Assembly (NCBI GenBank): GCA_905182515.1
Contig: CAJJBW010000001.1
Span: 18,275-82,274 of the forward strand
Direction of reading: 5' to 3'
Length of the DNA stretch: 64,000 nt
From: an uncultured Candidatus Poseidoniales archaeon
GTDB taxonomy: Archaea > Thermoplasmatota > Poseidoniia > Poseidoniales > Thalassarchaeaceae
The translations under genes were made by a program, and so were the position numbers. Positions 6,501 through 62,820 of the stretch are shown here, one piece after another. Each line of letters begins with the position of its first letter. Position 1 is the first letter of the stretch. The notes under the pieces are model-generated. The model worked only from the letters and a program-made list of their open reading frames with translations, did no database searches and was not told the DNA's origin.

Positions 6501-6836
6501 ATATCACTTGGAGTCGGAATTGATTATGTAATTCATATAATTGAGCGATTTAGAGAAGAGCGAGAAAATGGTAGAGAGGTGGAGCATGCGCTACGAATTG
6601 TAGGTGCCTCATCTGGGTTAGCATTATTTGGATCTGCAATATCTGACATCGCGGGCTTTGCTGTGATAAATCAATCTGATATGGGTTTCTTCTCTACATT
6701 TGGGTTATTTTGCGCAATAATGATTGGCCTGTCATTAATTGCAAGCATTATTTTAACGCCAGCTGCATTGAGTTTGTCAAACAGGATAAGGTCTAAATTT
6801 AAATCTAATACAGAACTACTGGTGCCGCAGCAATAA
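3522..6836 (+). CDS. RND-superfamily (MMPL/COG1033-like) exporter
   Basis: 1104 aa with two multi-helix membrane bundles and large soluble loops. GIDDSLHALHRYKEER and GVGIDYVIHIIERFREE are typical MMPL/RND exporter motifs. The start is uncertain (TTG 3522 or ATG 3573). Its 3' end overlaps pckA convergently by 32 nt. Confidence 0.7.
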   Translation: MDFKKTTTQIHEICGFTMRDLSNLVGFIFPKKKEVHISVLLISCLMVPGFISTLTPIDIESYSLDSPELEASEVMREEFAGAGNIWGFGIFVKEGEYWGKNPSEVSQIKDFNGEGEGLEFPTGGILNLTILKEIDDKKNLLMDHEISKFYLPLASDISGQPIEGVFDLASEFRFFMNGDSLLTKPKFDPDEFVIKPASTNWNDCGELECLSFDDENTTQAHIDLAAHRMANNSNGAFLRFLSIDRAFLPDLNSKVIGPINGELQANGTIIAAEWSAGRWSASSAWLILNMNRELMQKEGWTFSWMDASYEFGYTLEGVSLKTQPIKYTNSECKSRAENGSDLCSVEWLYLSLEEGLRETDDMVVSVLLGEGPNVEVNRELLSSAYLIIMMVFAVIVLLWFNLRRLSDVVIVGMGLILALLWMQGLIGWCMVFGQKTGLEIIFRSQFSNLLPILILALGIDDSLHALHRYKEERRTGKSPVESAEISISKVGRAVLLTSLTTIMAFMANLTSDIAALRSFGIEAGFGVAAAFILTGLWVPIVRMDVDLWLQKRNKLDEEDEDVLHMIPKEWLGNTASQSAKYATLIACFSLIITIIAAPMALSLEGDFEIDDFLDDESDFVIGVNLVNERFRDGEPGYVLIEGDIANPAIISAISEMRDNMNSHDTDDPNQISRTPTGEVELIALDQILMFTQAAFYVNSIPFEDSGWDRNLEDGGIECETMEVSHLIKGIVKIPILEDRECLNFLYGFILTKGVPATAGYPALPTTIVSEYIHTENELNISNPWLTTSGETPRYSKMSMRFGLSNPEQFALIEPALAQLQRDMVPFQNLSESRINIRGDVERAFESEDYPITWAIQTGDPVIRFVAADSMQDEMQETLLLGLVFCMMTLWWGFRSENSLQENIKLIKEDLFNFSIKSILVSAFMGLIIYILVGLDWAIITSIVTILLLIIWGTEAFGIAMITTAPIFLVIIWLYGMIEMAGYGLNMVTVSIAAISLGVGIDYVIHIIERFREERENGREVEHALRIVGASSGLALFGSAISDIAGFAVINQSDMGFFSTFGLFCAIMIGLSLIASIILTPAALSLSNRIRSKFKSNTELLVPQQ

Positions 6837-8403
6837 CTTCTTCAGTACATTCATCGGTATATTGGTTAAAATTATCAATAAACATTTTAGATAGTAAATT
6901 TGCTACATTGTCAAATTTTTTCTTATCGTTCCATGTATCTCTTGGTTGTAGTATAGATTCAGGCACTCCAACGCACTTTGTAGGAACAGAGAAGCCAAAT
7001 CGTTCATCTATAATAAAATCTGATTCAGCGATTTCGTTATTTAATGCCGCATTTAATAATGCCCTTGTCCATTTAATCTTTATACGGCTACTTTCGCCAT
7101 ATCCACCTGCGACCCATCCGGTATTAATTAGCCAACATTTTGCATCATGTTTCTTGATTTTCTTAGAAAGTAAATTTGCGTAGACGCTTGGGTGTCGGGG
7201 CATGAAGGGGGCACCAAAGCAAGTTGAAAAAGTGGCTTGAGGTTCTTTGATACCCATTTCAGTTCCAGCTACTTTCGCAGTATAACCTGATATGAAATGA
7301 TAAGCAGCTTGTGCAGGAGTTAAGCGTGAAAGAGGAGGTAGCACACCAAAGGCATCGCAAGTTAAGAAAACTACATTCGTTGGGTGTTCAGCCATTGAAT
7401 CAAGAGTTCGATTTGAAATAGATTCTAGGGGATATGACCCTCGGGTATTTTGAGTAAGTGTTTTATTCTTAAAATCCGGAGTTCGGTCAGCATTCAATAC
7501 GACGTTTTCTAAAATAGATCCAGGCATTTTAGTAGTTGCAAAAATTGCTGGTTCATCTTCTTCTTTCAAGTCTATTAATTTTGCATAACAACCTCCTTCA
7601 AAATTAAAAATTCCATCTTCGGACCATCCATGTTCATCATCTCCGACTAAAGCTCTGTTAGGATCAGCAGAAAGAGTGGTTTTACCTGTTCCAGATAAAC
7701 CAAAAAATAGAGCAGATTCGGCCCCTGTATTTGCAGAGCAATGCATTGGCAGTAAACCATTTATTGGAAGAATATGGTTCATAATTGTAAAAATAGCCTT
7801 CTTTATTTCACCTGCGTAATGAGTTCCTCCAATAATAACTAAACCTCTATCTAAAGCTAATATTACAAAAACTTCTGAGTTGATACCATCTTCCTTCGGG
7901 ATTGCTTTTAATTCAGGTGCGTGGAGAATGGTATATTGAGGCACGTGTTGAGAAATTTCTTCCGGGGTTCCTCGGATAAACATATTATGCATAAAAGCTG
8001 CATGCCATGCCTTTTCGGTAACTAGTCTAACGGGCATTCTGTAATTACTATCAGCGCCACAGAATGCATCTTTGACAAAAATATTATTAGCTTTATTTAG
8101 ATGAGTTTGAATTTTTTCTAATAATTTATCAAAGGTATTTATTGTAGTTGAACGATTAACTTCGCCCCACCATACTGAATCGGCTAAACCTGATTCCTTG
8201 ACTATAAAACGGTCATTTGGTGATCTTCCGGTACGTTCTCCAGTTGTAGCCAGTAAAACTCCATCGGCAGTTAAAGTGGCCTCATTTAATTCAATTGCCT
8301 TTGAATGTAATTCTTTCCAACCATCATTAATATGGATTTGACCTTGTGGCTCTAGACCTAGAGAACCCAAAGAAGTGAATAATTCATCAGAGGCCCCTGA
8401 CAT
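6805..8403 (-). CDS. pckA: phosphoenolpyruvate carboxykinase (ATP)
   Basis: 532 aa. It has the P-loop GLSGTGKTTLS, FNFEGGCYAK and IGGTHYAGEIKK, with full-length colinearity to bacterial-type ATP-PEPCK. Confidence 0.92.
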   Translation of the reverse strand: MSGASDELFTSLGSLGLEPQGQIHINDGWKELHSKAIELNEATLTADGVLLATTGERTGRSPNDRFIVKESGLADSVWWGEVNRSTTINTFDKLLEKIQTHLNKANNIFVKDAFCGADSNYRMPVRLVTEKAWHAAFMHNMFIRGTPEEISQHVPQYTILHAPELKAIPKEDGINSEVFVILALDRGLVIIGGTHYAGEIKKAIFTIMNHILPINGLLPMHCSANTGAESALFFGLSGTGKTTLSADPNRALVGDDEHGWSEDGIFNFEGGCYAKLIDLKEEDEPAIFATTKMPGSILENVVLNADRTPDFKNKTLTQNTRGSYPLESISNRTLDSMAEHPTNVVFLTCDAFGVLPPLSRLTPAQAAYHFISGYTAKVAGTEMGIKEPQATFSTCFGAPFMPRHPSVYANLLSKKIKKHDAKCWLINTGWVAGGYGESSRIKIKWTRALLNAALNNEIAESDFIIDERFGFSVPTKCVGVPESILQPRDTWNDKKKFDNVANLLSKMFIDNFNQYTDECTEEVIAAAPVVLY

Positions 8404-14651: not shown

Positions 14652-14689
14652 GTAATTTCTATCCATAGATTATATTCCGTATATTTGAA

Positions 14690-14755
14690 ATAGGGACGGT
14701 AAGTCGCGAGGACGCCCATTGGGCCACTGGAAACAGTGAACACGGGGGAACCGAC
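14690..14755 (+). promoter_or_regulatory. GC-rich 5' leader of the uS13 operon with a GNRA-capped hairpin
   Basis: The stretch GGGACGGTAAGTCGCGAGGACGCCCATTGGGCCACTGGAAACAGTGAACACGGGGGAACCGAC lies directly before the ATG. It contains a CACTG-GAAA-CAGTG hairpin at 14725-14738. TATA-like TATATTT sits about 10 nt upstream. Confidence 0.35.
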
Positions 14756-19338: not shown

Positions 19339-22194
19339 TCAAGTAAAAGCTATTCCTGGCTCTAGAGGGAAAGCCAATCTGGCTTTCCCTGCGACGTCTT
19401 CGCCCTCTCCTACAGAGTATATTGTAACAAAATCTAATCCTAATTCCTTTGAAATAAAATTTATATTTGATGATAAAAATTCAGATTCGTTGTTCATGTT
19501 AGTGATTAAATTTTTATCATCTTCTGCCCAAGTGAAAATCTTACCTCTTTTCTTCTTAGTGCCAATAGTTAAAATGGTCCATGTTTGGAATATTTCTCCT
19601 CTAATTTGTTCGTTTTTAAAGATAGGCAAGGATTTCAGATACTCTGTACCTTTGGATCTAAAATCAAATCCTTTTGATTGTAATGTTATTGCTTCTCTTG
19701 CTAAATCGTACTTCCATTTAGGCGATGTTTGAATGGTAAGGGTTGTTATTTCCGAGTCAACATGGCGTTCAGCAAGGCCTTTGACGTTTCTAGAAGAATC
19801 GATAACATTGCGTAATAGGGTTTCATAAGATAATATAATATTATCATTATTTGGAATCACATTCTCAGGTAGTTCAAATTTTGCTAGGTACCCTTCTTGA
19901 CCCATGCGATACCAAAATTCCTCAGCCAGATGAGGAGTTATTGGAGATAGCATAGGCAACCAAGTTTTTAGGAATTCAATAGCGATTTCGTAGTTATTGC
20001 CCCCTCTTCTACGGTACCAGTTCCAATCTGAAAGCATAGTGAAATGGCTCAACATTACCCCTTCACGTAAGCTTACGTCGGACATTACTTTTTTCCATTT
20101 TTCTTGATTTTTTCTTAATTTAGCAATAATCCAATTATCCATTTTACTAGAAGATTTGGGCATTAACAATGCTGAACTTAGTGCTTCAATTATTGATTTC
20201 AGTTGCCTATGGTTCGCCTCTAAGACACTGTCTGACCAGTCCATTCCTGCTTCAGGGTTAGCACCAAATAAAATGAATAACCTAACTGTATCGGCACCAT
20301 AAATATCAACCATTTGACCAGGACTGATGGTATTTCCTAATGATTTACTCATTTTTGCTGAGCGTTGCCCTAATAATTCACCACAAGTAGGGCAGTTGCA
20401 ATCAAAAAAATCTATATGATAATCTACATTGCATTTTGAGCAAAATGGCGTAGGAGAATTTAACATTCCCTGACAAACTAATCGCCCAAATGGTTCCCCT
20501 ACTGAAATCATATCAGCATCACGTATAATTTTTGTAAAAAATCTAGCATAAAGTAAATGCATTACTGCATGTTCTATTCCCCCTATGTACAAATCAATTC
20601 CTCCTTTCATCCAATAATCTACAGTTTCTTTATCGAAAGGAGAATTTGCATTATTAGAATCACAATACCTCATAAAATACCAAGAAGAATCATAAAATGT
20701 ATCCATAGTATCAGTTTCTCTTTTGGCTTTATTTCCACATATGGGGCAATTTACATTGATAAAGTCTTTGTGATTATCCAAGGGATTGCCACTTTGATCT
20801 TCCCTAAATATGACATCTAAAGGGAGCATAACAGGTAAAGATGATTTTGGAACCGGAACTACGCCACATGATTTACAATGAATCATTGGTATTGGGGTGC
20901 CCCAGAATCGTTGTCTTGACAGTAACCAATCTTTCAATCTATACTGTACTGCACCCTCACCGGATTGTATATTCTCTAATTCTGAAATTATTGCATTTTT
21001 TGCATCTTCACCATACAATCCATCAAATTTATCAGTATAAGAATTAATCATGGCACCATATCCTTCGAACGCCGATTTTATGTCTCCATCATTATCATCA
21101 TTAAGCTCATTTGATAAAACTTGCTTAATCGGTAAATCATATTTCTTAGCAAAATCAAAATCTCTTTGATCGTGACCCGGTACTGCCATAACAGCTCCAG
21201 TACCATATGAAGCGACAACAAAATTACCTGCATATATTGGGATTTTTTCTTTACTCAGTGGATTTACAGCATATTTTCCTAAAAAAACTCCTTTCTTATC
21301 TTTTAACATATTTATACGTTCGAATTCTGATAATTTAGAACATTCATCATGTAATTTTCTCCATCCTTTTTCCCATTCAGTATTTTTACAAAGTTCTTCA
21401 CATAAGTGGTGCTCAGGTGAAAGGGTAACAAAGGTTGTACCAAATATTGTATCCGGCCTTGTAGTAAAAACACTAATTTTAGAATCTGAATTGAAGACAG
21501 TAAAATCTATATTAGCTCCTTGGGACCTGCCAATCCAGTTTCTTTGCATTGATTTAACATTTTCGGGGAAAGAAATATTATCAAGTTCATCGAGTAATTC
21601 ATCAGAATAATCTGTCATCCTCAAAAACCATTGAGCCATATCTTTCTGTATAACTTCTAATCCACATCTCCAGCAACGATTATTTTTTACTTGTTCATTT
21701 GCTAAGACTGTGTCGCAGTCATTACACCAATTAACTGGTGCATATCTTCTTTCAACAAGTCCTTTTTCATTTAACATTAAGAATATTTCTTGATTCCAAC
21801 GATAATATTCTACGTCTGAAGTTGTTAAAGATCTGCGCCAATCATATGAATACCCCATTCTTTCTTGGTCTGCCCTAATACTTGCGATATTTCTATGAGT
21901 AACGTAATGCGGATGGCCTTGTTCTTTTTTTGCAGCATTTTCTGCAGGCATTCCAAAGGAATCATATCCCATTGGATATAGCACATTTTTCCCCATCAAG
22001 CGTTGAAATCTGGCCATAGAATCACCGATTGAATAATTCCGGACATGCCCCATGTGCATATTTCCAGACGGATAAGGGAACATTTCAAGGCAGTAGAATT
22101 TTGGTTTATTTGAGTTTGCTTCGGTTTCAAAAACTTTGGCTTTTGCCCACTCTTTTTGCCATCGGATTTCAGTTTCTTGGACATCATATTTCAT
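19339..22194 (-). CDS. leuS: leucyl-tRNA synthetase
   Basis: 951 aa with a HIGH-type motif (PSGNMHMGHVRNY), KMSKSLGN, and CP1 editing domain colinearity. Confidence 0.95.
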   Translation of the reverse strand: MKYDVQETEIRWQKEWAKAKVFETEANSNKPKFYCLEMFPYPSGNMHMGHVRNYSIGDSMARFQRLMGKNVLYPMGYDSFGMPAENAAKKEQGHPHYVTHRNIASIRADQERMGYSYDWRRSLTTSDVEYYRWNQEIFLMLNEKGLVERRYAPVNWCNDCDTVLANEQVKNNRCWRCGLEVIQKDMAQWFLRMTDYSDELLDELDNISFPENVKSMQRNWIGRSQGANIDFTVFNSDSKISVFTTRPDTIFGTTFVTLSPEHHLCEELCKNTEWEKGWRKLHDECSKLSEFERINMLKDKKGVFLGKYAVNPLSKEKIPIYAGNFVVASYGTGAVMAVPGHDQRDFDFAKKYDLPIKQVLSNELNDDNDGDIKSAFEGYGAMINSYTDKFDGLYGEDAKNAIISELENIQSGEGAVQYRLKDWLLSRQRFWGTPIPMIHCKSCGVVPVPKSSLPVMLPLDVIFREDQSGNPLDNHKDFINVNCPICGNKAKRETDTMDTFYDSSWYFMRYCDSNNANSPFDKETVDYWMKGGIDLYIGGIEHAVMHLLYARFFTKIIRDADMISVGEPFGRLVCQGMLNSPTPFCSKCNVDYHIDFFDCNCPTCGELLGQRSAKMSKSLGNTISPGQMVDIYGADTVRLFILFGANPEAGMDWSDSVLEANHRQLKSIIEALSSALLMPKSSSKMDNWIIAKLRKNQEKWKKVMSDVSLREGVMLSHFTMLSDWNWYRRRGGNNYEIAIEFLKTWLPMLSPITPHLAEEFWYRMGQEGYLAKFELPENVIPNNDNIILSYETLLRNVIDSSRNVKGLAERHVDSEITTLTIQTSPKWKYDLAREAITLQSKGFDFRSKGTEYLKSLPIFKNEQIRGEIFQTWTILTIGTKKKRGKIFTWAEDDKNLITNMNNESEFLSSNINFISKELGLDFVTIYSVGEGEDVAGKARLAFPLEPGIAFT

Positions 22195-23596: not shown

Positions 23597-26257
23597 TCAC
23601 TCAGTTTTATCTTTTTTATCAGTATTTATTTTTAATTTTTTAATCGCAATAGCTACACTTCCCACCGGTAAATTTCCTTCATTCTCTAATGCTGAAATCG
23701 CTCCTAGAATAATATTTTTAGTATCTATCTCAAAAAACTCTCTAAGAGAATCTCGCGTATCGGAACGTCCGTAGCCATCTGTTCCTAAAACAATAAACTG
23801 CCCCCCTATCCATCTATGAATCATCTCTGGTATTGCACATATATGGTCTGAAACGGCTATTGTTGGTAGTTCATCTCCGAAACAATCTTCTACATACGCA
23901 GACATTTTATCTTGAGGATTTAATCTATTGTAACGAGTTGTGGATAATCCTTCTCTACGTAATTCCCCATAAGAGGTTACTGACCATAATTCTGAATCTA
24001 TACCAAAGTCAGTATACAAAATTTCATGTGCTTCTTTAGCGTATTTTAATATGGGCCCTGAACCAAGTAATCTAACTTTCGGCATTTTATTATTTTTTCC
24101 TTCAACTAACTTATATGCCCCTCTAATTATACCTTTATCCACTCCATCGGGCTTGGGGGGCTGTTGTTGATTCTCATTGTATATCATTATATAATGGAAA
24201 ACATCTAATTCTTGGCCCCACATTTCCTTTATACCGTGATTTATTATTGTTGATAATTCATAGGCATAAGCTGGGTCCCATGCCCTGCATGATGGAACCG
24301 TAGATGCAATAAGTAGGCTATGCCCATCTTGGTGTTGTAACCCTTCACCGTTTAGAGTTGTGCGGCCCGCAGTAGCCCCCATCAGAAATCCGCGTGCCCT
24401 TGCATCGGCTGCACTCCAAATTTGATCTGCTACTCTTTGAAAGCCGAACATTGAGTAAAATGTATAAAAAGGTAAAGTTGGTGAATTAGAATGAGAATAG
24501 GAAGTTGCACTTGCTATCCATGATGCAATAGCATTTGCTTCGGAAATTCCCTCTTCTAATATCTGACCTCCTTGTGATTCTTTATAATTTAATAGCATTT
24601 TGTGATCTACAGGAGTATATTTTTGACCTTGGCTGGAAAATATTCCAAATTCACTAAAAAGAGGATCCATGCCAAAGGTCCTTCCTTCATCTGGAATTAT
24701 AGGAACTACTCTGTCACCAATATCCGATTTCATTATTTTCCTAAGTAATCTAACAAAAGCCATAGTTGTAGAAACTTGCTGGCCTTCTGGCGTCCCTTTG
24801 TCGAAATCTGAATATACGTCATAGCCTGGAAGGTTTATATTTATTTTTGGAGATTTTCTAGATGGAAGAAATCCTCCTAATTTATTTCTTTGTGATATCA
24901 AATATTGAAATTCTTCTGAATCTGAATCCAACGCATAAAATGGACTCTTTTCTAGATCAGAATCTGGAATTGGGATTTGTAGTCTATCCTTGTATGCCTT
25001 TAGATCATCAAAATTCATCTTTTTCTTTTGATGAGTAGAGTTTCTTCCCTCAAAAGAATCTATTCCCCATCCCTTTACAGTATGTCCCAATATTACTGCA
25101 GGTCCATTTGCTGCTTCTGCGGCCTTAAATGCTGAATATACTTTTATTGGATCATGTCCTCCTCTTGCTAAATTAGATATTTCTGTATCTGATATTGTGT
25201 TTCCTAAACTTATTAATGCTTCATTACCTGAAAAAAATTCTGATCTGAATAGTGATGGCTTTAAGGTACTCATTCGTTGCCAATCGCCATCATTTATCTC
25301 TTCCATTCTCTTTAATACAATTCCTTTAATATTGGGTTTCATTATTTTATCCCAACCAGAATTCCAAAGTACTTTGATTACCGTCCATCCAGCACCTCTG
25401 TAAAGCCCTTCCAATTCCTGAATAATTTTAGAATTACCTCGAACAGGGCCATCTAATCTTTGGAGGTTACAATTTATTACTACAATTAAATTATCTAAAT
25501 TCTCTCTTCCGGCAACCGCTATTGACGCTATTGATTCTGGTTCATCCATTTCTCCATCTCCCAAAAATGCAAAAACACGACTATCGGAAGTATCTGCCAA
25601 ACCCCTCATGTGAAGGTATTTCCAAAATCTGGCTTGCATTACAGCTGCTAATGGGCCGAGTCCCATTGAAACAGTTGGATATTCCCAAAAATCTTTCATT
25701 AATCTAGGATGAGGGTATGATGACAATCCATCCTCAAATGCTTCTTGACGGAAATTAATTAATTGGTTGTGCGTTATTCGTCCTTCAAGATATGCTCTAG
25801 CATAAATTCCAGGACTGCAATGACCTTGAACATACAATGCGTCACCGATACCATTCATTTCTTTACCTCTAAAGATATGATTGAATCCTACTTCATAAAG
25901 TGTAGAGCTGGATGCATATGACGAAATATGACCGCCTATGCCATCTATTCTTCTATTTGCATCTGAAACTATTAAAGCTGCATTCCACAATATTAAGTTT
26001 TGAATTCTTCTTTCTAATTCTAAATCCCCAGGGTACGCCAGTTGTTGGTTTAATGGAATTGTGTTTAAATATGGTGTTTTAGATATCTGATTAATTGGGA
26101 TAGATAGGTATTCCGCCTCTATCATTAATTCATGTAAAAGCATTCTTGCCCGTTCTGAGCCATGTTTTTGTACAACTGAACGAAGTGACTCCAACCATTC
26201 ATCAGTTTCTTCAACATCATCATCTGGTAGATTTTGATGTGGTTTTAGACCTGACAA
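23597..26257 (-). CDS. aceE: pyruvate dehydrogenase E1 component, homodimeric (AceE) type
   Basis: 886 aa, colinear with E. coli AceE throughout (FLGDGEMDEPES, INCNLQRLDGPVRGN, GTDGYGRSD). It uses a TTG start preceded by GGTGAT. Confidence 0.92.
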   Translation of the reverse strand: MSGLKPHQNLPDDDVEETDEWLESLRSVVQKHGSERARMLLHELMIEAEYLSIPINQISKTPYLNTIPLNQQLAYPGDLELERRIQNLILWNAALIVSDANRRIDGIGGHISSYASSSTLYEVGFNHIFRGKEMNGIGDALYVQGHCSPGIYARAYLEGRITHNQLINFRQEAFEDGLSSYPHPRLMKDFWEYPTVSMGLGPLAAVMQARFWKYLHMRGLADTSDSRVFAFLGDGEMDEPESIASIAVAGRENLDNLIVVINCNLQRLDGPVRGNSKIIQELEGLYRGAGWTVIKVLWNSGWDKIMKPNIKGIVLKRMEEINDGDWQRMSTLKPSLFRSEFFSGNEALISLGNTISDTEISNLARGGHDPIKVYSAFKAAEAANGPAVILGHTVKGWGIDSFEGRNSTHQKKKMNFDDLKAYKDRLQIPIPDSDLEKSPFYALDSDSEEFQYLISQRNKLGGFLPSRKSPKININLPGYDVYSDFDKGTPEGQQVSTTMAFVRLLRKIMKSDIGDRVVPIIPDEGRTFGMDPLFSEFGIFSSQGQKYTPVDHKMLLNYKESQGGQILEEGISEANAIASWIASATSYSHSNSPTLPFYTFYSMFGFQRVADQIWSAADARARGFLMGATAGRTTLNGEGLQHQDGHSLLIASTVPSCRAWDPAYAYELSTIINHGIKEMWGQELDVFHYIMIYNENQQQPPKPDGVDKGIIRGAYKLVEGKNNKMPKVRLLGSGPILKYAKEAHEILYTDFGIDSELWSVTSYGELRREGLSTTRYNRLNPQDKMSAYVEDCFGDELPTIAVSDHICAIPEMIHRWIGGQFIVLGTDGYGRSDTRDSLREFFEIDTKNIILGAISALENEGNLPVGSVAIAIKKLKINTDKKDKTE

Positions 26258-36519: not shown

Positions 36520-37605
36520 GTGTGTTGTATGATAAATATTAGATTAGAAGATGTTGCTTCATTTGTAAGGAATATAGGTAGTGAATGTACATTAATAATT
36601 AACCATAATGATAATTTAATAATCGGTTCCAATACAGGATTATTGATTTGTTGGTCTGTCTCTTCTGGAATTGAAAAATGGAGGAATAGTTTTGAAGGTC
36701 CATGCTCAGAATTAGTTACAGATGAAGAAATATGTTATCTTACAGAAAATGGCAATGTTCATTCGATAAATTTGAAGAGTGGTGAAATAGTATGGAGTTT
36801 AGAACTAGAAGGATTAAGTGATTTTATTCAAGTTAATGGTGAAAATGTTTGGGTTACCTCTTCGACATATGACTTACATATTTCAAATTACTCAGAATCA
36901 ATAGTTTGGCTTATAAATAAAAATGGAGATATAATGGAAAAATGGGCTGTGGAAGGTAAACCTTGGTCCCTTGCAATCACTGACCATGGGGTATTTATTG
37001 GGCTCAGTAGACCCAAATGTGGTTATGCTAAAATCTCTAAAAATAACAATATTGAATATGTATCTCTCAAAAATGAAAATCCAGTTACAATAGGGTTGGA
37101 AAAAGATAAAATGATATTTCTTGGGCATAGCAATGGAAAAGTTACTGTAATAGATCAAGAGGTAACTAGAGAAATAGACATAGGAAAATCCGCAGTAAGT
37201 TCATTAGAAAAGAAAGATGATTTGATCATTGGCTTGGAATCAGGAGAAATATATTCTGAATTAAATGAATGGAATATTAAACTAGATGGGATAATAGATA
37301 GAATAGTCCAGGGGCCATCAATTGAAGGTGTGAGATTTTTATGGTCGTCATCTTGGTCCAATAATTCTACTATATGTGCCATTGATATTAATACAGGATT
37401 GATAAATTATAAGTTACAACATAATTTCAGAATAAGGCAAATGAAAAGTAATGGGAAAATTTTAGTTCTTGGCGATTCAGATGGAAAAATTTTCTTAATT
37501 GAAGATTTGGTTTTAAATCGGCGAATAAAAGCCCCTATTGAACTAATAGAAAATGATGAAAAAAGAGCACTGCTCAAAGACAAGTTACGAAGCTTACGCA
37601 TGTAA
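36520..37605 (+). CDS. PQQ-like / beta-propeller repeat protein
   Basis: 361 aa with repeated units of about 40 aa and G-x-hydrophobic-W patterns (SGIEKWRNSF, GEIVWSLELEG, GDIMEKWAVEG). No signal peptide is evident. Confidence 0.5.
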   Translation: MCCMINIRLEDVASFVRNIGSECTLIINHNDNLIIGSNTGLLICWSVSSGIEKWRNSFEGPCSELVTDEEICYLTENGNVHSINLKSGEIVWSLELEGLSDFIQVNGENVWVTSSTYDLHISNYSESIVWLINKNGDIMEKWAVEGKPWSLAITDHGVFIGLSRPKCGYAKISKNNNIEYVSLKNENPVTIGLEKDKMIFLGHSNGKVTVIDQEVTREIDIGKSAVSSLEKKDDLIIGLESGEIYSELNEWNIKLDGIIDRIVQGPSIEGVRFLWSSSWSNNSTICAIDINTGLINYKLQHNFRIRQMKSNGKILVLGDSDGKIFLIEDLVLNRRIKAPIELIENDEKRALLKDKLRSLRM

Positions 37606-38330
37606 TATTTTTCAGTGGAAATTTACCTAAAGGTAGGGGCATTTCCGGTGTACTGCGAGATTGTTACCGAAAGATTTAAGAGTCATGCATCTCCCTGTTT
37701 GCTTTGCTGCTCCAAGGGAGTGGTGTGGGGACGCTTAGGCTGAACCGCGGGCCACAAAAACTGAGCCTCAAAATTGGGGCAGTAAAATCAACTTCTGAGA
37801 AGAGGTTGAGGAAAGAGTCAAAATTGCCTGTGGGCAATTAAGACGCCGGTAGAACTGGTGTGGAAATAACCAAACGAAAGAATGGTAAAATAGACAACAG
37901 AGGCTGAGGAAAACAAAACCGAACGTTTAGGCGGGGAAAACAAAACCGAATCAGAAACTATACCGCAGAAGTGCACACAAGAAGGGGGAGGAGACAATCC
38001 TGAGTTGTGTCGTGGGGAACAACCAAGTAAAAATGGAAGGGAAACACGCAAAAACGAGCGCGAATAAAATCGTGGAGTGTAATGGTACTGATTTCGTGAA
38101 AAAAAACAGAGAGATCTGACTATGGAAACGAAAACGGCAAATGAGAAAGTAATTAATCAAATGTCGGAAAAGATGGAAACATCAGGCAAAATGAACCTTA
38201 ATGGTTTATGAGTCGCTACCCGGGAAAATGGAAGTCTTAGGACTAAAGTAGAACCGGACCCTGCGGAGTAAACAGAGAACAATGCCCCCCCATAGGTATT
38301 GTTCTCTGTTGCTCCCACCTTTATTCATAT
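37606..38330. ncRNA. candidate large non-coding RNA / unexplained purine-skewed island (strand unresolved)
   Basis: The 777-nt gap lies between convergent genes in an otherwise compact window. There is no credible ORF. It has a plus-strand purine skew, GGAA(A) repeats, a 16-nt direct repeat, and terminal hairpins. Confidence 0.3.
38271..38310. terminator. perfect 13-bp hairpin (possible bidirectional terminator)
   Basis: AACAGAGAACAAT - 14-nt loop (GCCCCCCCATAGGT) - ATTGTTCTCTGTT. It lies 73 nt downstream of the fumC stop and at the end of the ORF-free island. T-rich tracts follow on both strands. Confidence 0.5.
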
Positions 38331-38382
38331 TAGGCTCACATTATCTATAATTTCATAGTTACGAGAGTTTATATCATAAAAG

Positions 38383-39984
38383 TTATTTCTTGGGCCCAGT
38401 CATTTCTTTAGCAATCACCCATTGATTAAATTGTTCATTGGTTAGCAACCCTAATTCAATTGCACTTTGCCTCAATGTTAAATTATTTTCATGTGCATTC
38501 TTGGCAATTTTTGCCGAGTTATCATATCCGATATGCGAATTTAATGCTGTAACCAACATTAATGAATTTTCTAAATGTTCAGATATTTTTTCTTCATTGG
38601 CAGTAATTCCAATTATACAGTTTTTTGTAAACGACTTACAACAATCAGATAATAGTTCAATGCTATGAAGAAGATTGTATATAATCATAGGTTTAAACAC
38701 ATTTAACTCAAAATTACCTTGACTTCCCCCTATTGATATGGCTGTATTATTCCCCATCACTTGGCAGCATACCATAGTCATAGCTTCGGCTTGAGTTGGA
38801 TTTACCTTTCCTGGCATTATACTTGATCCTGGCTCATTTGCTGGAAGAGATAATTCGCCAAATCCACATCTTGGTCCTGACCCTAGCCATCGGATATCAT
38901 TTGCTAACTTCATTAGTGACACTGATAATGTATTTAGTGCGCCCGATGACGATACTATGGCATCATGTGCTGCAAGTTGAGAAAATTTATTATTTGCAGA
39001 TTCAAAAGGTAAACCAGTTTTTTTTGCCATTTTTAAAGCCACTAACTCAGAAAAATCAGGATGTGTATTCAGCCCAGTACCTACTGCTGTACCTCCAAGA
39101 GCAAGCTCAAAGAGATCTATGAGTGTAAATTCAATTCTCTTGATATCTGCATCTAGCATTGCAACATATCCTCCAAATTCTTGGCTAAGCGTTAATGGGA
39201 CTGCATCCATAAGGTGTGTCCTACCAATTTTTACAATACCTTCGAACTCTTTTACTTTATTTGAAAGTTCAGACCTGAGATATCTTACAGATGGTAGTAA
39301 ATCATGATAAATTTCTTCTGCTGCGGCTAAATGCATAGCTGTTGGGAATGTATCATTGCTCGATTGTGCCATATTTACATGGTCGTTTGGATGAACTGGT
39401 TTTTTACTTCCGAGTACTCCATTGACAATTTCTATAGCCCTATTCGCTATTACCTCGTTGGCATTCATATTAGTTTGTGTTCCGGAACCAGTTTGCCAAA
39501 TTCGAAGTGGAAAATGCTCATCCAAACTACCAGATATAACTTCTTCACATACATTGATTATTAATTTACCAATTTCAGAATCTAATTCCCCTAACTCAAC
39601 GTTTACTTCTGCTGCTGACTGTTTCAAAATACCAAATGCCCTAATTATTGACCTAGGCATTAAGTCATTTCCTATATTGAAATTTACCAATGACCTAGCA
39701 GTTTGAGCACCATAATATCTATCAGCAGGAACTTCAATTACGCCCATTGTATCTTCTTCTTTTCTTATCTCCCCCTTGGGTAAACTAGGATTTATTTCTA
39801 TAACAATATCAGAATTTTTAATTTTTGAGATTTTTGAGTTTAACGATTCTAAAATCATCTGGGAAATTGTTGCTGATCTACCAGAATTTTTACCTTTACC
39901 AACGTTTAAGTCTAGTTTTAGCGCTATTTCTTCTGGTACACTAATTGTCATTATTCTACGGTCGCCTGCGCGATGTTTTCCCAT
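38383..39984 (-). CDS. fumC: class II fumarate hydratase with N-terminal ribbon-helix-helix-like extension
   Basis: [13 protein letters not shown], the signature [16 protein letters not shown], and [19 protein letters not shown] mark the canonical N-terminus at about aa 72. Residues 1-56 ([39 protein letters not shown]) look like a CopG/Arc RHH domain. Confidence 0.9.
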
Positions 39985-41640: not shown

Positions 41641-41679
41641 TATCGCAGTCAATGTTCTTGTGCGACCTATCGCAGTCAA
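41641..41679 (+). repeat. tandem direct repeat TATCGCAGTCAA x2 (27-nt period) upstream of polD DP2
   Basis: Exact 12-mers lie at 41641-41652 and 41668-41679 in the 135-nt pyrE/polD divergent spacer, 30-70 nt upstream of the DP2 start. Confidence 0.6.
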
Positions 41680-41710
41680 GTATTATCGGTGACCGAGGGG
41701 TGTGTATGAA

Positions 41711-44700
41711 ATGTTAGAAAAAAATATTCGTACAATAACATATAATTCCGAAGTTTTGGAACAAGAGTCTAAAAAATATCAAGAATGGTTAGATGAAAAA
41801 ACTGAAGAAGTTTATAATTTAGCTTCAAAAGCGAAATTAAAAAATTTAGATTTTGAAAATTACATAGAAATTCCTAGAGCTTCTGACCTTGCAAGTAGAA
41901 CTGAAAAACTTCTCCAGAAAGACTATTTGAAGGACTTATCAATAGAAGATGATTTACGTAAATTGCTAAAAGAGTATGATAGAGAAACTACATCAATAAA
42001 AATAGGCGTGGATGTAGCCAAGCGTAAATTTGAAGAAACAAAGGACTTGCAAATATCAATAGATTGTGGATTAAGAGTCGGATTGGCTGTCCTTACAGAA
42101 GCAGTTTTAGTAGCGCCATTAGAAGGAATTGGTGATGTTAGAATATTAAATAACGTAGACGGTTCAGAATTTTTATCAATAGATTTCTGTGGGCCGATTC
42201 GTGCTGCAGGAGGGACTGCACAGGCACTCGGCGTACTTATTGGAGATATGATTAGGAGAGAATTAGGAGTAAGCAGATACATACCAACTACAGATGAAGT
42301 TGAAAGAGTAAAAGAAGAATTTGGCCTATATAGAGTTGGGTTACAATACAAACCTCCTCCTGAAGAGATAGAAACAATAGTTAGAGCGTGCCCAGTGATG
42401 ATTAATGGAGAAGAAACCGAAAAAAATGAATGTGCTGGATTCAAAGAAGTTCGGAATGTAATAAATTCTAATGGTACCCCTAGAACAAGAATAAGGGGTG
42501 GTGTAATGCTAGTTATCGGGGAAGGTTTATGCCTCAAAGCGCCAAAAATTAAAAAACATGTAGAGCGCTTAAAAATAGCCGGTTGGGAATTTATTTCTGA
42601 CTTTGCAGATAAAGGGAAAAAAAAGGAAGAGGGCGTGGTTTTCAAGTCAAGAACTATTCCAAAAATTACAAGATTTATGGATGATGTTATTGCTGGAAGG
42701 CCAATTTTTGGAGAACCAGGAGAACCAGGAGGTTTTAGACTCAGATATGGAAGAAGCAGAGTTACCGGATTGGCCGCTGCAGGAATTAATCCAATTACTA
42801 TGGAAGCGATGGGGGGATTTTTATCAGTTGGAACTCAAATGAAAACAGAAAGGCCGGGTAAGGCGTGTGCGGTAACTCCTTGTATCGATATTGATGGCCC
42901 TCTAATACTAGATATTGAAGGTAATTATAAGCTTATCAAAAGCATAGAAGAATGGCACAAGATTGAAAATAAAATACATTCTATTTGGGATTCTGGAGAA
43001 ATATTAATAGGATTTGGAGAGTTTTTGGAAAATAATAAAAATTTAGTTCCTTCATCTTATTCTAAAGATTGGTGGGCTGCTGATCTTGCAGAAGCTTTGG
43101 ATCATCCAGATAAAGTAGATAAATTCGCTAAAATAATAAATATTAAAAAATCAAAATTACCGTTAGGTGTACCATTCACGGGTGCAATTAATCGAGGAGG
43201 GGAGAATCCGATAGATAGGAATTGGAGAAAACGGGATTGGATATCTTTCTTAAAAAATTGTAAATTAAATTGGGACCAAGTCTATGAAATATCACAAAAC
43301 TTTGCTACTGCAGTGCCCCCTCCATGGAACATTTGGTGGTCGGATTTACCAATTGTTGCAGTTCCATTGTTGGTGGATGCATTAGTAACTTCTGGAATAG
43401 AGTATGGTAATTTAAGATTAAAGGAGGTAGTCAAAAATTGGAACATTAATAATGAATTACCGGGGTCAATATCAGAAGAAATATTAGAGGAATTTCCAAA
43501 AACATCCGAAATAAAAATACATGGCGTTATAAAATGTGCGTTGATGACTCTTGGATTAGAACATCATCATGAAGGTCAGGATATAATTATACCCAGAAAT
43601 TGGGAAGGGTTATTGGATGGTTTGGGTTTAAAAATTAAATCTAAATCGATAATAAAAAATTTAAATTATACACCTTATGTAATCGATAGGATATCAAAAT
43701 TAAAAGCTGCAAATATAGTAATTAATGAAGAAAGGGAAAGGTCGAAGATTCTAAAGAAAAAGAGGGAGAATTCGAGAAGGGAGGCAACCACGGGAGCAAT
43801 GCAATCAGGGCTAGACTCTTCCGAAACTGAAAGAGTTGGGGAGACTGCAGCAAATAAAATAATTGATAAAGGACCACGGGATTTAAAGTTGTATCAAAAT
43901 GCTATGAAATTGGTTGATGATAATAAAGTGGAAAAGACATTGTGGCTAGTGAGGAATTTGTCTTCAATTAGATGGGAGGATGCAGTGCCCTGCAGGATTG
44001 GAGCAAGAATGGGGCGACCTGAGAAATCTGGAATTAGGGAGATGAAACCCATGGTGCATGCTTTGTATCCAATTGGAGGAGCAGGGGGGCCTCAAAGACT
44101 AATGCAACAAGCATCAAAGAAGGTTAAAATCACGGTAGAGATGTCTCCAAGAATTTGTGGAAAATGTGGAAAGAATTCGGGTCATATTATTTGTCATAAT
44201 AGAGTTGATCAAAGCAATCCGATTGAATGTGGAGGAAGGACTTCTTTAAGAACGCAAAAAAAACAACAAAGGAGAAGAATTGGAGAAAGAACACATGTCC
44301 CTATTGAATCGATATTAGAGGTGAAAAGGAGATCTTTAGGATTAGAACGTTTGCCTGAAAGAATAAAAGCGATGAAAGAATTGATTTCAAGATTACAAAC
44401 ACCCGAACCAATTGAAAAGGGCATATTGAGGGCAAAGCACAATTTATCTGTATTTAGAGATGGGACAGCCAGATATGATATGATAGATGTTCCAATAACC
44501 CATTTCCGTCCATCGGAAATTGGCACCCCCTGGAAAAGTCTGTATAATTTAGGATATAATTATGACATGTATGGCAAAGAATTAAAATCAAATGAACAAA
44601 TATTAGAATTATTTCCTCAAGATTTTATTCCATCAATAAATGGTAAAGACCATCTAATTTCAACCTGTAAATTTATAGATGAATTATTAATTAGGTTTTA

Positions 44701-45679
44701 TAAAATGGAGCCTTTTTACAATGTTAAAAGTGAATTAGATTTAGTTGGCCAATTGGGTATCGGACTTGCTCCGCACACATCTGGAGGGGTTTTGTGTAGA
44801 ATAATTGGATGGACATCTGCATCTGCAGGTTATGCTCATCCGTTATTTCATGCTGCAAAAAGAAGGAATTGTGATGGCGATGAAGATAGTATTATGCTTC
44901 TTCTTGACGGATTATTAAATTTTTCTAGATCTATTTTACCATCAGGTAGGGGCGGTAAGATGGATGCCCCATTAGTGCTTTCTACTAGAATCAACCCAAG
45001 TGAAATAGATAAAGAAGCACTTAATGTAGATTGTTCATGGAACTACTCTAGTTCTTTTTATGAATCTACGCTTACTCAACCGCATCCTAACGGTATAATC
45101 AATTTAGTTGACTTAGTGTCACATAGAGAAGGTACTATTGGAGATAAAAGAGGGTATGGTTGGACGCATGATTCTGGGCCATTAGATGCTGGCCCAAAAA
45201 ATTCATCTTATAAGACATTAAAAAGTATGAAAGATAAAATGGATGGTCAATTAAATCTTGGAAAACGACTAAGGGCTGTTGATGCAACAAAAGTAGCATC
45301 TAAGGTTATTCAATCTCATTTCTTGCCGGATATGAGAGGCAATATGATGGCATTCACTAGGCAATCCGTCAGATGTGTTAAATGTGGAGAAAAATATAGA
45401 AGAATGCCTTTAGCTGGTAAATGCATCAAAAGAAAAACTATCAGTACTGGATTTGATACCATTTCAAGAGATGATGATGGATCATTATGTAATGGCAATG
45501 TAATATTAACAGTTTCAAAAGGTAATGTTAAAAAGTATATTCAAATTACTAAAGACGTAATTGAAGAATTCGGGGTAGACATGTATACCAAACAGAGAGT
45601 AGAATGGACATCAGACAGTGTTGATTCTTTATTTAATAATGATTCAGTTACTGTTATGACTTTGGAAGATTTCTTTTAA
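41711..45679 (+). CDS. polC: DNA polymerase II (PolD) large subunit DP2
   Basis: About 1320 aa. FCGPIRAAGGTAQA, the C-terminal Zn modules (CGKCG..., RCVKCGEKYRR) and NCDGDEDSIMLL mark the catalytic region. The ATG 41711 start is preferred (GGGGTG Shine-Dalgarno); the ORF is open from GTG 41702. Confidence 0.93.
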   Translation: MLEKNIRTITYNSEVLEQESKKYQEWLDEKTEEVYNLASKAKLKNLDFENYIEIPRASDLASRTEKLLQKDYLKDLSIEDDLRKLLKEYDRETTSIKIGVDVAKRKFEETKDLQISIDCGLRVGLAVLTEAVLVAPLEGIGDVRILNNVDGSEFLSIDFCGPIRAAGGTAQALGVLIGDMIRRELGVSRYIPTTDEVERVKEEFGLYRVGLQYKPPPEEIETIVRACPVMINGEETEKNECAGFKEVRNVINSNGTPRTRIRGGVMLVIGEGLCLKAPKIKKHVERLKIAGWEFISDFADKGKKKEEGVVFKSRTIPKITRFMDDVIAGRPIFGEPGEPGGFRLRYGRSRVTGLAAAGINPITMEAMGGFLSVGTQMKTERPGKACAVTPCIDIDGPLILDIEGNYKLIKSIEEWHKIENKIHSIWDSGEILIGFGEFLENNKNLVPSSYSKDWWAADLAEALDHPDKVDKFAKIINIKKSKLPLGVPFTGAINRGGENPIDRNWRKRDWISFLKNCKLNWDQVYEISQNFATAVPPPWNIWWSDLPIVAVPLLVDALVTSGIEYGNLRLKEVVKNWNINNELPGSISEEILEEFPKTSEIKIHGVIKCALMTLGLEHHHEGQDIIIPRNWEGLLDGLGLKIKSKSIIKNLNYTPYVIDRISKLKAANIVINEERERSKILKKKRENSRREATTGAMQSGLDSSETERVGETAANKIIDKGPRDLKLYQNAMKLVDDNKVEKTLWLVRNLSSIRWEDAVPCRIGARMGRPEKSGIREMKPMVHALYPIGGAGGPQRLMQQASKKVKITVEMSPRICGKCGKNSGHIICHNRVDQSNPIECGGRTSLRTQKKQQRRRIGERTHVPIESILEVKRRSLGLERLPERIKAMKELISRLQTPEPIEKGILRAKHNLSVFRDGTARYDMIDVPITHFRPSEIGTPWKSLYNLGYNYDMYGKELKSNEQILELFPQDFIPSINGKDHLISTCKFIDELLIRFYKMEPFYNVKSELDLVGQLGIGLAPHTSGGVLCRIIGWTSASAGYAHPLFHAAKRRNCDGDEDSIMLLLDGLLNFSRSILPSGRGGKMDAPLVLSTRINPSEIDKEALNVDCSWNYSSSFYESTLTQPHPNGIINLVDLVSHREGTIGDKRGYGWTHDSGPLDAGPKNSSYKTLKSMKDKMDGQLNLGKRLRAVDATKVASKVIQSHFLPDMRGNMMAFTRQSVRCVKCGEKYRRMPLAGKCIKRKTISTGFDTISRDDDGSLCNGNVILTVSKGNVKKYIQITKDVIEEFGVDMYTKQRVEWTSDSVDSLFNNDSVTVMTLEDFF

Positions 45680-61635: not shown

Positions 61636-62820
61636 TTGTATTGGCGGTTAATGCCAATGCCGCTTGAGCCGCCAGAGATTGGTGACGAGATGTTATTGTC
61701 TCGTTATGCATTTTTACCTCAAAGTACAAAATATGTAAGAGAATTATTAATCAAGAATGGGATAACCATTGAGCAGTTAATAGAAGCCACTTGGTTAGAA
61801 GACATTAGGGCACGCGGTAGAGTAAGACTTGTAGAGTGTATAATGCATAAAGATGGGATAGATGCTGCAACAACCGTAGACTTGTCAACTGATATTGGTA
61901 AAATGACTGAGTCATTATCTTTTCTTCATGCAATGTTAGTAGTTTGTGCCTCTTTTGATGAAAGATTACTTGCCCGATGGATAGAGGGAGAGGCTAGTAG
62001 AGCAGATCAATTATTGGGAATGGATAAAGAAAACTTCATGCAAGTTGCAAGGTCCTATTTCTCTGGCATCAGAGAAGAAATAAATGTCGGCTTAGAAAGT
62101 ACGTTTTGGATTTCGATAAGTGATTTTATTGAATTGTGCCCAAGAATATCTGGAGATTATTGGAGATTAATTAACCGTCCAGTCAAAGATGGTTGGGTGT
62201 GCATGAATGCAGCAGTAGGTGAAAATAGTAGACAGCGTACTGCTAGATTGATGAAAGAAAGGATAAGAGAGAACTTGACTGAAATATGTAACCAGAGGAT
62301 AGAGAAAATGGATGATGAGTTTGCTGCTCAATTTTCTGACTCAATTGAAAGAATAATCGGTTTATTTTCAGAAAGAGTGCATGCGGAAATGCCAATTAGT
62401 GCTGCGAAAAGAACAGAATGGCCTCCTTGTTTTGAGATGGCGGTCTCAGAATTAAACCAGGGAATAAACGTAAATCATACTGGTCGTGTTTTCCTAGCAG
62501 CAATGTCTAGATCTATGGGTCATTCTCAAGATGAAACTTTATCATTTTTTTCGAATGCTCCGGATTTTAATGCAGATACTAGTGCGTATCAGATAAATCA
62601 AATATATGAAAGAGAATATACTCCCCATGGCTGTTCGGCTTTGAAGACTGGGGCTAGATGCCCAGTTCAAAGAGGTGATAATTCACTATGTGATCAAGAG
62701 TGGATGTCGCATCCACTAAAATATTTACGTGCAAAGCAACGACAAAGATATAATGAAGTAGATGTGGTAAAAAATAGAGTTGAGGATAAAGAATTGAACG
62801 AAACGTCAAATTCTTCATAG
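61636..62820 (+). CDS. priL: DNA primase large subunit PriL
   Basis: WPPCFEMAVSELNQGINVNHTGRVFLAAM...YTPHGCSALKTGARCP is the Fe-S domain signature. The start may be ATG 61651. Confidence 0.85.
   Translation: MYWRLMPMPLEPPEIGDEMLLSRYAFLPQSTKYVRELLIKNGITIEQLIEATWLEDIRARGRVRLVECIMHKDGIDAATTVDLSTDIGKMTESLSFLHAMLVVCASFDERLLARWIEGEASRADQLLGMDKENFMQVARSYFSGIREEINVGLESTFWISISDFIELCPRISGDYWRLINRPVKDGWVCMNAAVGENSRQRTARLMKERIRENLTEICNQRIEKMDDEFAAQFSDSIERIIGLFSERVHAEMPISAAKRTEWPPCFEMAVSELNQGINVNHTGRVFLAAMSRSMGHSQDETLSFFSNAPDFNADTSAYQINQIYEREYTPHGCSALKTGARCPVQRGDNSLCDQEWMSHPLKYLRAKQRQRYNEVDVVKNRVEDKELNETSNSS

Follow-up and report, generated by a model that had tools for sequence, protein, structure and literature searches.

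The spacer described here lies at positions 37606-38382 of a 64,000-nucleotide (nt) stretch of DNA, hereafter the window, from an uncultured Candidatus Poseidoniales archaeon, between the stop codon of a beta-propeller gene at 37605 and that of the convergent fumC gene at 38383. At 777 nt it is the largest gap between long open reading frames (ORFs) in the window, the next being 296, 170 and 157 nt, and it is the sole long non-coding island in the 64 kb. An earlier note on this DNA had read the island as a candidate large non-coding RNA (ncRNA), possibly one that titrates a protein. Our listing of gaps bore out its description of a 777-nt spacer between convergent genes, by far the longest in the window. 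The window itself is archaeal, encoding PolD DP2 (41702-45679), the large subunit of primase (61636-62820) and archaellum genes.

The longest ORFs on the plus strand of the spacer have 45, 42 and 35 codons, so that none reaches 60 amino acids, and the minus strand carries two overlapping ORFs rich in Ser, Phe, Leu and Pro, of 77 amino acids (37818-38051) and 69 amino acids (37951-38160). The ORF list agrees in both respects with what the earlier note had said, and every one of the six frames across the spacer is interrupted by multiple stops. The enrichment in G+C that it reported is also real (0.427, against 0.364 for the window), with local values of 44-47%, and the AT skew inside the spacer peaks at +0.53. 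Purines make up 0.61 of the plus strand over the spacer and 45 of the 60 nucleotides in 37861-37920, exactly as counted by hand in that note. This skew falls at the 95th-99th percentile of the window's 700-nt windows, i.e., it is high without being unique, because the coding strands of the genome are also purine-rich.

Metagenome contigs were scanned with an exact pattern from an internal 3' motif, GGACCCTGCGGAG-N30-58-GCTCCCACC, which at least 120 marine metagenome loci match; the counts of copies, synteny and alignment given here rest on the matches listed and on copies found through synteny. Among the loci listed there are 99 full-length copies, 73 of them below 96% identity, with lengths of 663-1021 nt, G+C of 42-62% and purines of 59-71%, on the same strand in each, in host genomes whose G+C is about 35-56%. 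With nhmmer we found one copy per locus, that in the window spanning 37609-38356 (E = 3e-201). A search with fumC, using one genome per species, gave three Poseidoniales loci, and at one of these, of 54% G+C (L001), an 868-nt spacer is collinear with that of the window, with blocks 73-78% identical. The hosts, by source name, are Candidatus Poseidoniales, several of them named Thalassarchaeaceae.

The propeller gene lies directly upstream on the same strand in 85/85 informative loci, whose other neighbour is given by a wider count: 121 loci have a convergent fumC downstream and 2 have PTH2. Propeller homologues 34-99% identical to that of the window, where they had enough flank, were all followed by a spacer of 710-893 nt that aligns over its whole length. 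The conservation that the earlier note had proposed to look for is thus found wherever the flanking genes are kept, with one exception (L091), at which the RNA is absent and just 1 nt separates fumC from a propeller gene of 29% identity. In a Thermoplasmatota metagenome-assembled genome (L003), fumC has no adjoining RNA and is next to an unrelated 176-amino-acid ORF, and the genes for the propeller protein and an M32 peptidase are absent. These two loci mark either the limit of the family's distribution or rearranged genomes. Viral contigs of IMG/VR gave no match to the 3' motif, and their single match to the 5' motif (L212, 69% G+C) was a chance one, without similarity. An origin as a mobile element, intron or phage was ruled out by the single copy per contig, the fixed locus and the lack of any true match in IMG/VR.

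Applied to the alignment of 73 sequences, RNAalifold gave about 30 helices, many with compensatory changes. For the whole RNA, in the 31 sequences below 90% identity, 134 pairs were 92.0% canonical, compared with 36-45% in slid controls, and 84 pairs had changes on both sides, compared with 30-35. In the 5' domain (31 sequences) 95.4% of cells were paired (37-49% when slid) and 23 pairs were double-changed; in the 3' domain (30 sequences) the figures were 97.8% (32-54% when slid) and 10. Pair 37728:37745, for example, is G-C in 48 sequences and A-U in 25. The compensatory change expected of a structured RNA gene is therefore present, with 92-98% of cells paired against 32-54% in the slid controls. 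Many of the loops are tetraloops of the GNRA or UUCG type.

The fold also indicates the strand. Read on the plus strand, 91.9% of paired cells were canonical, compared with 84.9% on the complement; G-U pairs account for 8.9% of paired cells, and several of them are nearly invariant. Because pairs containing G-U lower the canonical fraction to this extent on the complement, the plus strand is the functional one. Between copies 85-97% identical, indel lengths modulo 3 were 1 in 840 cases, 2 in 222 and 0 in 143, and because they are mostly not multiples of three, the locus is not coding. With stops in all frames and non-triplet indels, a coding signal is absent, and a coding gene or pseudogene on either strand was ruled out on these grounds.

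Upstream of the RNA there is a TFB-recognition element and TATA box (BRE/TATA) with the sequence GAAAgGTTTA at 37669-78. Of its positions, G37669 and the TTTA at 37675-78 are each present in 73/73 sequences, with variable flanks. It lies about 26-30 nt upstream of the onset of RNA conservation and of the first helix (37704-06). Archaeal start sites are spaced some 25-30 nt from the BRE/TATA, and the spacing here would fit such a start. None of the window's other spacers between long ORFs contains the strict pattern, and other upstream regions have weaker TATA-like boxes, a comparison that speaks neither for nor against this promoter. A conserved BRE/TATA about 25-30 nt upstream of a conserved RNA start is what an independent archaeal transcription unit should show.

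From the conservation across copies of differing G+C, the roughly 30 covarying helices, the plus-strand G-U pairs, the promoter, the absence of coding signal and the absence of any Rfam match (below), we conclude that 37704-38340 on the plus strand is very probably a transcription unit of its own that encodes a large structured ncRNA, the first member of a new family found at a single locus in Marine Group II (MGII) archaea. That part of the earlier note's proposal is strongly supported by the same conservation, compensatory changes, G-U pairs, promoter and non-triplet indels. The RNA would be about 640 nt long here and about 560-900 nt in relatives, and its hosts would be Poseidoniales, at least the Thalassarchaeaceae.

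Between the propeller gene and the promoter is an inverted repeat, with arms TTTTCAGTGGAAAT and (consensus) ATTTCCAGTGGAC separated by a variable spacer of about 18 nt. The arms are nearly invariant in the 73 sequences (GGAA and TTTCC are each found in 73/73), and the inverted repeat is the single match in the window to TTYCAGTGGAAAY at 0 mismatches. The arms are similar to the cores of archaeal origin recognition boxes (ORB) and mini-ORBs: the Pyrococcus mini-ORB is TTCCAGTGGAACT, with a conserved TTCC/GAA core (PMC1904270), and the Sulfolobus mORB is GATTTTCAGATGAAACG (PMC3089459). Lying about 45 bp upstream of the TATA box, the repeat probably binds a regulatory protein, and because the arms are ORB-like this could be one of the Orc1/Cdc6 type. 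It may instead be the 3' hairpin of the propeller mRNA, since in the AT-rich clade the spacer between the arms is itself self-complementary.

The motifs that the earlier note had listed as internal organisation of the island, i.e., CAGTGGAAAT / ATTTCCGGTG, CCGAAAGATTTAAG, CTCCCT..AGGGAG and AATTGCC-TGTG-GGCAATT, were all found where it had placed them, as were the exact 16-nt direct repeat GGAAAACAAAACCGAA at 37908 and 37935 and the 13-bp hairpin at 38271-38310. Of these, the inverted repeat and the BRE/TATA-like box sit upstream of the RNA and outside it. The CTCCCT..AGGGAG pairing spans the predicted transcription start and finds no support in relatives. The features of the locus are collected in Table 1.

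Table 1. Features at and around the spacer, in window coordinates; paired segments are joined by a colon.
Feature	Position	Strand	Remarks
Beta-propeller gene	36520..37605	+	Cytoplasmic, PQQ/BamB-like, 361 amino acids, isoelectric point (pI) 5.1; Pfam PQQ_2, Beta-prop_ACSF4
Conserved inverted repeat upstream of promoter	37610..37656	.	Arm 1 (T)TTCAGTGGAAAT; arm 2 ATTTCC(A/G)GTG.ACTGC
Putative BRE/TATA promoter of RNA gene	37669..37682	+	Window GAAAGATTTAAGAG; family consensus GAAAgGTTTAtg
Proposed non-coding RNA gene, about 640 nt	37704..38340	+	Predicted 5' end 37700-37706; predicted 3' end just past GGCYC 38333-37
5' domain, three-way junction	37704..37785	+	P1, H1, H2, H3; from alignment and RNAalifold
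P1	37704-08:37781-85	+	Pair 37708:37781 C-G in 56 sequences, U-A in 16
H1	37710-13:37717-20	+	
H2	37722-34:37739-53	+	Capped by UUCG-type loop
H3	37765-69:37776-80	+	
Two hairpins, H4 and H5	37788..37844	+	Compensatory changes at every pair
H4	37788-91:37806-09, extended by 37795-96:37801-02	+	Capped by GNRA loop
H5	37817-19:37842-44 enclosing 37824-28:37833-36	+	Conserved CUGUGG loop; the AATTGCC..GGCAATT hairpin; 37818:37843 C-G 35, U-A 33
Sub-domain A	37847..37965	+	Closed by 37847-50:37962-65, 100% paired, double changes in all 4 pairs
GNRA mini-hairpin module in sub-domain A	37870-85	+	CC-AAA-C-GAAA-G-AAU-GG
16-nt repeats in sub-domain A	37908-23, 37935-50	+	Flank hairpin 37924-26:37932-34
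Sub-domain B	37970..38089	+	Closed by 37970-74:38085-89; helices 85-99% paired
Sub-domain B, inner helices	37984-86:37999-38001, 38011-14:38045-48, 38049-51:38082-84, 38060-64:38069-73	+	
Hairpin series, three arms (to 38208)	38095..38217	+	
Hairpin arm	38095-97:38128-30 with 38106-10:38115-19	+	38106-19 hairpin weaker, 73% paired
Hairpin arm	38135-38:38163-66 with 38143-48:38153-58	+	38143-48:38153-58 double changes in 6/6 pairs
Hairpin arm	38191-95:38204-08	+	Double changes in 4/5 pairs
3' domain	38220..38320	+	38220-24:38253-57 encloses UUCG-type hairpin 38229-36:38241-47
3' domain, invariant strings		+	GGACCCUGCGGAGU before the long hairpin, UGCUCCCACCU after
Long hairpin	38262-79:38302-17	+	Holds the 13-bp hairpin; conserved C-rich apical loop GC(U/C)CCCCCAU; 38272:38309 G-C 38, A-U 31
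GGCYC	38333..38337	+	Mostly GGCCC in relatives, where T-rich runs follow it; preceded by a variable spacer
fumC, class II fumarase, convergent	38383..39984	-	Pfam Lyase_1, FumaraseC_C; N-terminal extension of about 70 amino acids

A scan for tertiary contacts by mutual information mostly reflected clade structure, and gave just P1 and one possible lone loop-loop pair, 37716:37775 (G-C in 34 sequences, U-A in 25, G-U in 10). In sub-domain B, pair 37971:38088 is A-U in 38 sequences and G-C in 27, and 38063:38070 is G-C in 49, A-U in 9 and C-G in 9. The region of the 16-nt repeats is present in 48/73 relatives and has no support from covariation. At the 3' end, GGCYC followed by T-runs probably marks the end of the RNA or a terminator. 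GGCYC may also pair with GGGCC at 37749-53 as a helix closing the 5' and 3' ends; this pairing is canonical in 59-69 of 73 sequences, has no covariation and competes with the local pairing of H2. A look by eye for kink-turn (L7Ae) motifs, and for a 3' tail resembling the 16S rRNA 3' end (h45 / anti-Shine-Dalgarno), gave no convincing match.

The purine-rich middle of the RNA is modular. The G+C-rich relatives have up to six dispersed copies of a GA-rich module of about 55 nt, GUGGAGAGAACCGGAGAGAACUGGACGCAAGGAAAGGGAAGGAAGGGGAAGGAAGC, with extra modules in the region of sub-domain A, and its core mini-hairpin, CC-RRR-C-GNRA-G-RAD-GG, has 126 occurrences within the elements and none in the 1.9 Mb surrounding them. 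Across relatives the GA-rich or GNRA-hairpin modules number from 1 to 6 or more, and AT-rich lineages have repeat units unlike those of GC-rich ones; the RNA of the window is near the minimal form. As judged from the alignments, the modules resemble expansion segments added to a conserved core, not an array of identical binding sites. At another locus (L193:700-920) the GNRA-capped hairpin H4 is triplicated in tandem (GGGGAACCGGAAUCCGAAAGGAGGAA x3), which shows, at the level of sequence, module duplication within the RNA.

The comparison with Rfam that the earlier note had proposed matched no family. Rfam 15 comprises 4227 covariance models, including those for OLE, GOLLD, ROOL, HEARO and raiA, and in gathering mode it gave no match in the whole 64-kb window. 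In E-value mode, matches in 37300-38700 were at chance level, the best (E = 0.1, 22 bits, compared with a gathering score of 50) being to a Betaproteobacteria toxic small RNA on the minus strand, and at E<=5 there were 0 matches on 15 homologous loci. The covariance models for archaeal RNase P RNA (RF00373 / RF02357) had no match at E<=10 in 37300-38700 or at E<=5 in the 15 homologous loci, and that for archaeal signal recognition particle (SRP) RNA (RF01857) had none in the window or in the 15 homologous loci.

RNase P RNA has a long-range helix, P4, formed by CR-I (GAGGAAAGUCC) with CR-V (ACAGAA..GGCUUA). A CR-I-like string, GAGGAAAGAGUC, is present at 37808-19, but its GUC pairs locally with 37842-44, covarying at 37818:37843, rather than forming a P4, and the RNA contains no CR-V-like partner for it. 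Canonical forms of RNase P RNA (RNaseP_arch, 292-306 nt) and SRP RNA (Archaea_SRP, 305-315 nt) were found in metatranscriptomes of MGII by Hou et al. 2016 (PMC5069720). Because MGII has these separate canonical versions, the spacer RNA is neither of the two. Both were ruled out on the combined evidence of the absent covariance-model matches, the local pairing of the CR-I-like string and the canonical MGII versions, in agreement with the earlier note, which had been unable to match the island to either.

The spacer RNA nevertheless resembles the RNase P and SRP RNAs in being single-copy, promoter-equipped, G+C-enriched and structured, i.e., of a housekeeping type, although it is twice their size. 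With the bacterial ornate large RNAs OLE, GOLLD, ROOL and raiA, whose functions are unknown or only emerging, it shares a length of the order of 550-900 nt, covarying helices by the dozen, conserved junctions and loops, many GNRA and UUCG-type loops, and no obvious mRNA target; just as OLE sits beside oapA, it occurs as one copy at a fixed locus beside one protein gene. Unlike those RNAs, it matches no covariance model, has an archaeal host and an archaeal BRE/TATA promoter, and shows a strong purine skew, lineage-specific GA-rich modules and no link to phage or prophage (IMG/VR). CsrB and RsmZ are similar in their repeated short purine motifs and varying number of small hairpin modules; the spacer RNA differs from them in being much larger and consisting mostly of unique conserved helices, without enrichment of GGA and with repeats that are not conserved between lineages. 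CsrA-type partners are not known in the host group.

Several points weigh against our interpretation or limit it. Both ends of the RNA, its transcription and its abundance are predicted from sequence. The shuffle controls, in which 0/500 reached the observed pairing of the 5' domain and 0/500 that of the 3' domain, ignore phylogeny, and the slid controls are the fairer comparison. Several helices and the closing pair GGGCC:GGCCC never vary and are thus neither supported nor refuted, and the first 25 nt or so of the RNA have two competing folds. The invariance of GGACCCTGCGGAG and GCTCCCACC in the metagenome loci holds by construction, these being the search pattern, and is partly a matter of ascertainment, although both are also invariant in 11 copies found through synteny. 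The acidity of the propeller protein lends no support to RNA binding, and its linkage to the RNA may be plain conservation of gene order. An already described MGII ncRNA, considered below, could be a fragment of this RNA, and that would lower the novelty of the family.

The propeller protein was set aside as a partner of the RNA: it is acidic, the Pfam/NCBIfam scan found no RNA-binding domain in it, and perfect synteny is the one point in its favour. On the other side, the N-terminal extension of fumC (about 70 codons, about 39775-39984, minus strand) is kept in Poseidoniales homologues, whose matches run over residues 1-533, and is lacking in bacterial homologues, whose matches begin at about residue 66-74; the extension has no Pfam domain. 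Elsewhere in the window there is a bacterial-type leucyl-tRNA synthetase (leuS_bact 890 bits, compared with 281 for leuS_arch), and the homodimeric-type pyruvate dehydrogenase E1 (aceE) and ATP-dependent phosphoenolpyruvate carboxykinase are likewise bacterial-type. These enzyme genes, at 19339-22194, 23597-26257 and 6805-8403, look like inter-domain transfers. A 12-nt sequence, TATCGCAGTCAA, is repeated exactly and in direct orientation at about 41641-41652 and 41668-41679, 27 nt apart, within the short gap that precedes the PolD DP2 gene, and may be a regulatory site. The 104-nt spacer at 14652-14755, upstream of ORF 14756, is strikingly G+C-rich (GGGACGGTAAGTCGCGAGGACGCCCATTGGGCCACTGG...) given how AT-rich the genome is, and has no Rfam match at gathering thresholds; a small structured RNA or a leader may lie there.

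How the RNA acts, and whether it is wholly new, admit more than one answer. If it were a protein sponge, its many GGA/GGAA motifs or GA-rich modules would titrate an RNA-binding regulator, as CsrB/RsmZ do with CsrA. The earlier note's tally of at least 12 GGAA(A) motifs agrees with our counts, and relative to dinucleotide shuffles there is a modest enrichment of GGAA (13 observed, 8.9 expected; 34/500 shuffles reach 13) and of GGAAA (10 observed, 4.1 expected; 3/500 reach 10). ATGGAA has 4 copies in the spacer where 0.6 are expected, and the exact 16-nt repeat inside the RNA and the variable number of modules among relatives point the same way. However, GGA itself is not enriched (21 observed, 19.9 in shuffles), the repeat units are lineage-specific, in the manner of expansion modules, 25/73 relatives lack the region of the 16-nt repeat, and conservation is strongest in the unique helices, junctions and loops. 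Known sponge RNAs are unlike this, being made of similar hairpins in short arrays. No candidate for the titrated protein was identified; the neighbouring propeller protein is acidic. The suggestion of a sponge made in the earlier note therefore finds little support, and we regard it as distinctly improbable. A more substantial possibility, if still a doubtful one, is that the spacer RNA is the full-length form of Tan1 (Thalassoarchaea ncRNA 1), an MGII ncRNA of 229 nt whose function is given as unknown, which ranked fifth in Red Sea RNA-Seq and was described as having a "complex secondary structure", with homologues in Thalassoarchaea fosmids that are 75-79% identical (PMC5069720). Compared by description only, the two have the same host group (MGII / Thalassoarchaea), a complex fold and a similar divergence of homologues. 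Tan1 is abundant, MGII genomes are compact with this spacer the one long non-coding island in 64 kb, and read mapping to divergent contigs could have recovered just the conserved 5' 190-230 nt or so. Against this there is the near three-fold difference in length (229 nt reported, about 640 nt here), and neither the window nor its homologues match any family in Rfam 15. In the literature searched we found no description of the spacer RNA, Tan1 being the sole candidate precedent. The class is categorically new relative to curated families; even if Tan1 is a fragment of it, novelty remains in its full extent of about 640-900 nt, its fold and promoter, its modular expansions and its distribution in Poseidoniales.

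The remaining alternatives would do without an RNA. A real or decayed protein gene, corresponding to the Ser-, Phe-, Leu- and Pro-rich minus-strand ORFs and frameshifted in the AT-rich genome, might be suggested by gene callers, which place minus-strand ORFs over the element in three relatives (200 amino acids in L086, 184 in L089, 155 in L213), and by stop-free stretches of up to 304 codons in relatives. Such long minus-strand open frames are, however, expected from composition, because a purine-rich plus strand lacks TTA, CTA and TCA; the called ORFs have no Pfam match, each frame in the window has multiple stops, non-triplet indels (840 and 222) far outnumber triplet ones (143), and the compensatory pairs, G-U pairs and promoter, all on the plus strand, contradict a minus-strand gene. 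A decayed protein gene, which the earlier note had named as an outcome that would overturn its proposal, does not explain the island, and we consider any coding role extremely unlikely. The annotated hypothetical proteins across the RNA gene, at L086:4120-4722, L089:4180-4734 and L213:3965-4432 (all minus strand) and at L088:4450-4755 and L090:4451-4760 (plus strand), are almost certainly spurious by-products of its purine-rich composition. A DNA-level element close to the genes for PolD and primase, either an origin of replication or a control region to which Orc1/Cdc6 binds, would account for the resemblance of the inverted repeat to ORB and mini-ORB cores and for the presence of both those genes in the window. 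But just two ORB-like arms, 18 nt apart, are present, with no cluster elsewhere in the window, and TGGAAA/TTTCCA palindromes are also frequent as transcription-factor sites; the region is G+C-rich, not an AT-rich unwinding element, and no orc1/cdc6 was found among the 28 larger ORFs, part of those in the window, that were scanned with Pfam/NCBIfam. The flanking genes converge, whereas origins typically show the reverse arrangement. A DNA function cannot, moreover, account for compensatory changes in pairs across 600 nt. An element of this kind is very unlikely, and oriC as the main explanation was ruled out by the missing ORB cluster, the G+C enrichment and the lack of orc1/cdc6 among the ORFs scanned. 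An RNA gene and an Orc1-regulated promoter are mutually compatible.

If the locus is a gene for a structured ncRNA, the RNA would act in trans as a stable folded molecule, most likely as the core of a ribonucleoprotein (RNP) or as an RNA machine. That it is of this kind, rather than a sponge or an antisense regulator, we propose tentatively, as quite possible but short of probable. The invariant nucleotides of junctions and loops (GGACCCUGCGGAGU, GCUCCCCCAU, UGCUCCCACCU, CUGUGG and GCGGGCCAC) would be its functional surfaces, and its purine-rich middle, made of GNRA-capped mini-hairpins and GA-rich linkers, would grow and shrink by lineage in the manner of expansion segments. A bolder version, which we think unlikely, makes it the first archaeal counterpart of the ornate large RNAs of bacteria, i.e., a housekeeping RNA machine (a ribozyme or a self-assembling RNA or RNP) specific to MGII, the surface ocean's most abundant planktonic archaea, and controlled through the ORB-like site, possibly by Orc1/Cdc6, and so wired to the cell cycle.

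New classes of large, intricately folded ncRNA are rare and have repeatedly led to biochemistry that no one had foreseen, examples being RNase P, OLE, GOLLD/ROOL and the HEARO/omega RNAs. To our knowledge, and judging by Rfam 15 and the literature searched, no lineage-specific archaeal RNA of this size, rRNA aside, has been described, and the spacer RNA would be the first such RNA of the OLE/GOLLD/ROOL class of size and complexity. The alignment could seed an Rfam family, the spurious opposite-strand hypothetical proteins in public assemblies should be removed, and the compact AT-rich versions, of about 560-640 nt, would be good targets for probing and cryo-electron microscopy. Marine Group II archaea, although uncultured, rank with the most abundant microbes in surface ocean waters. 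An RNA of about 640-900 nt that they conserve as a single copy under its own promoter is likely to be important to their biology, and likely to be abundant in ocean metatranscriptomes.

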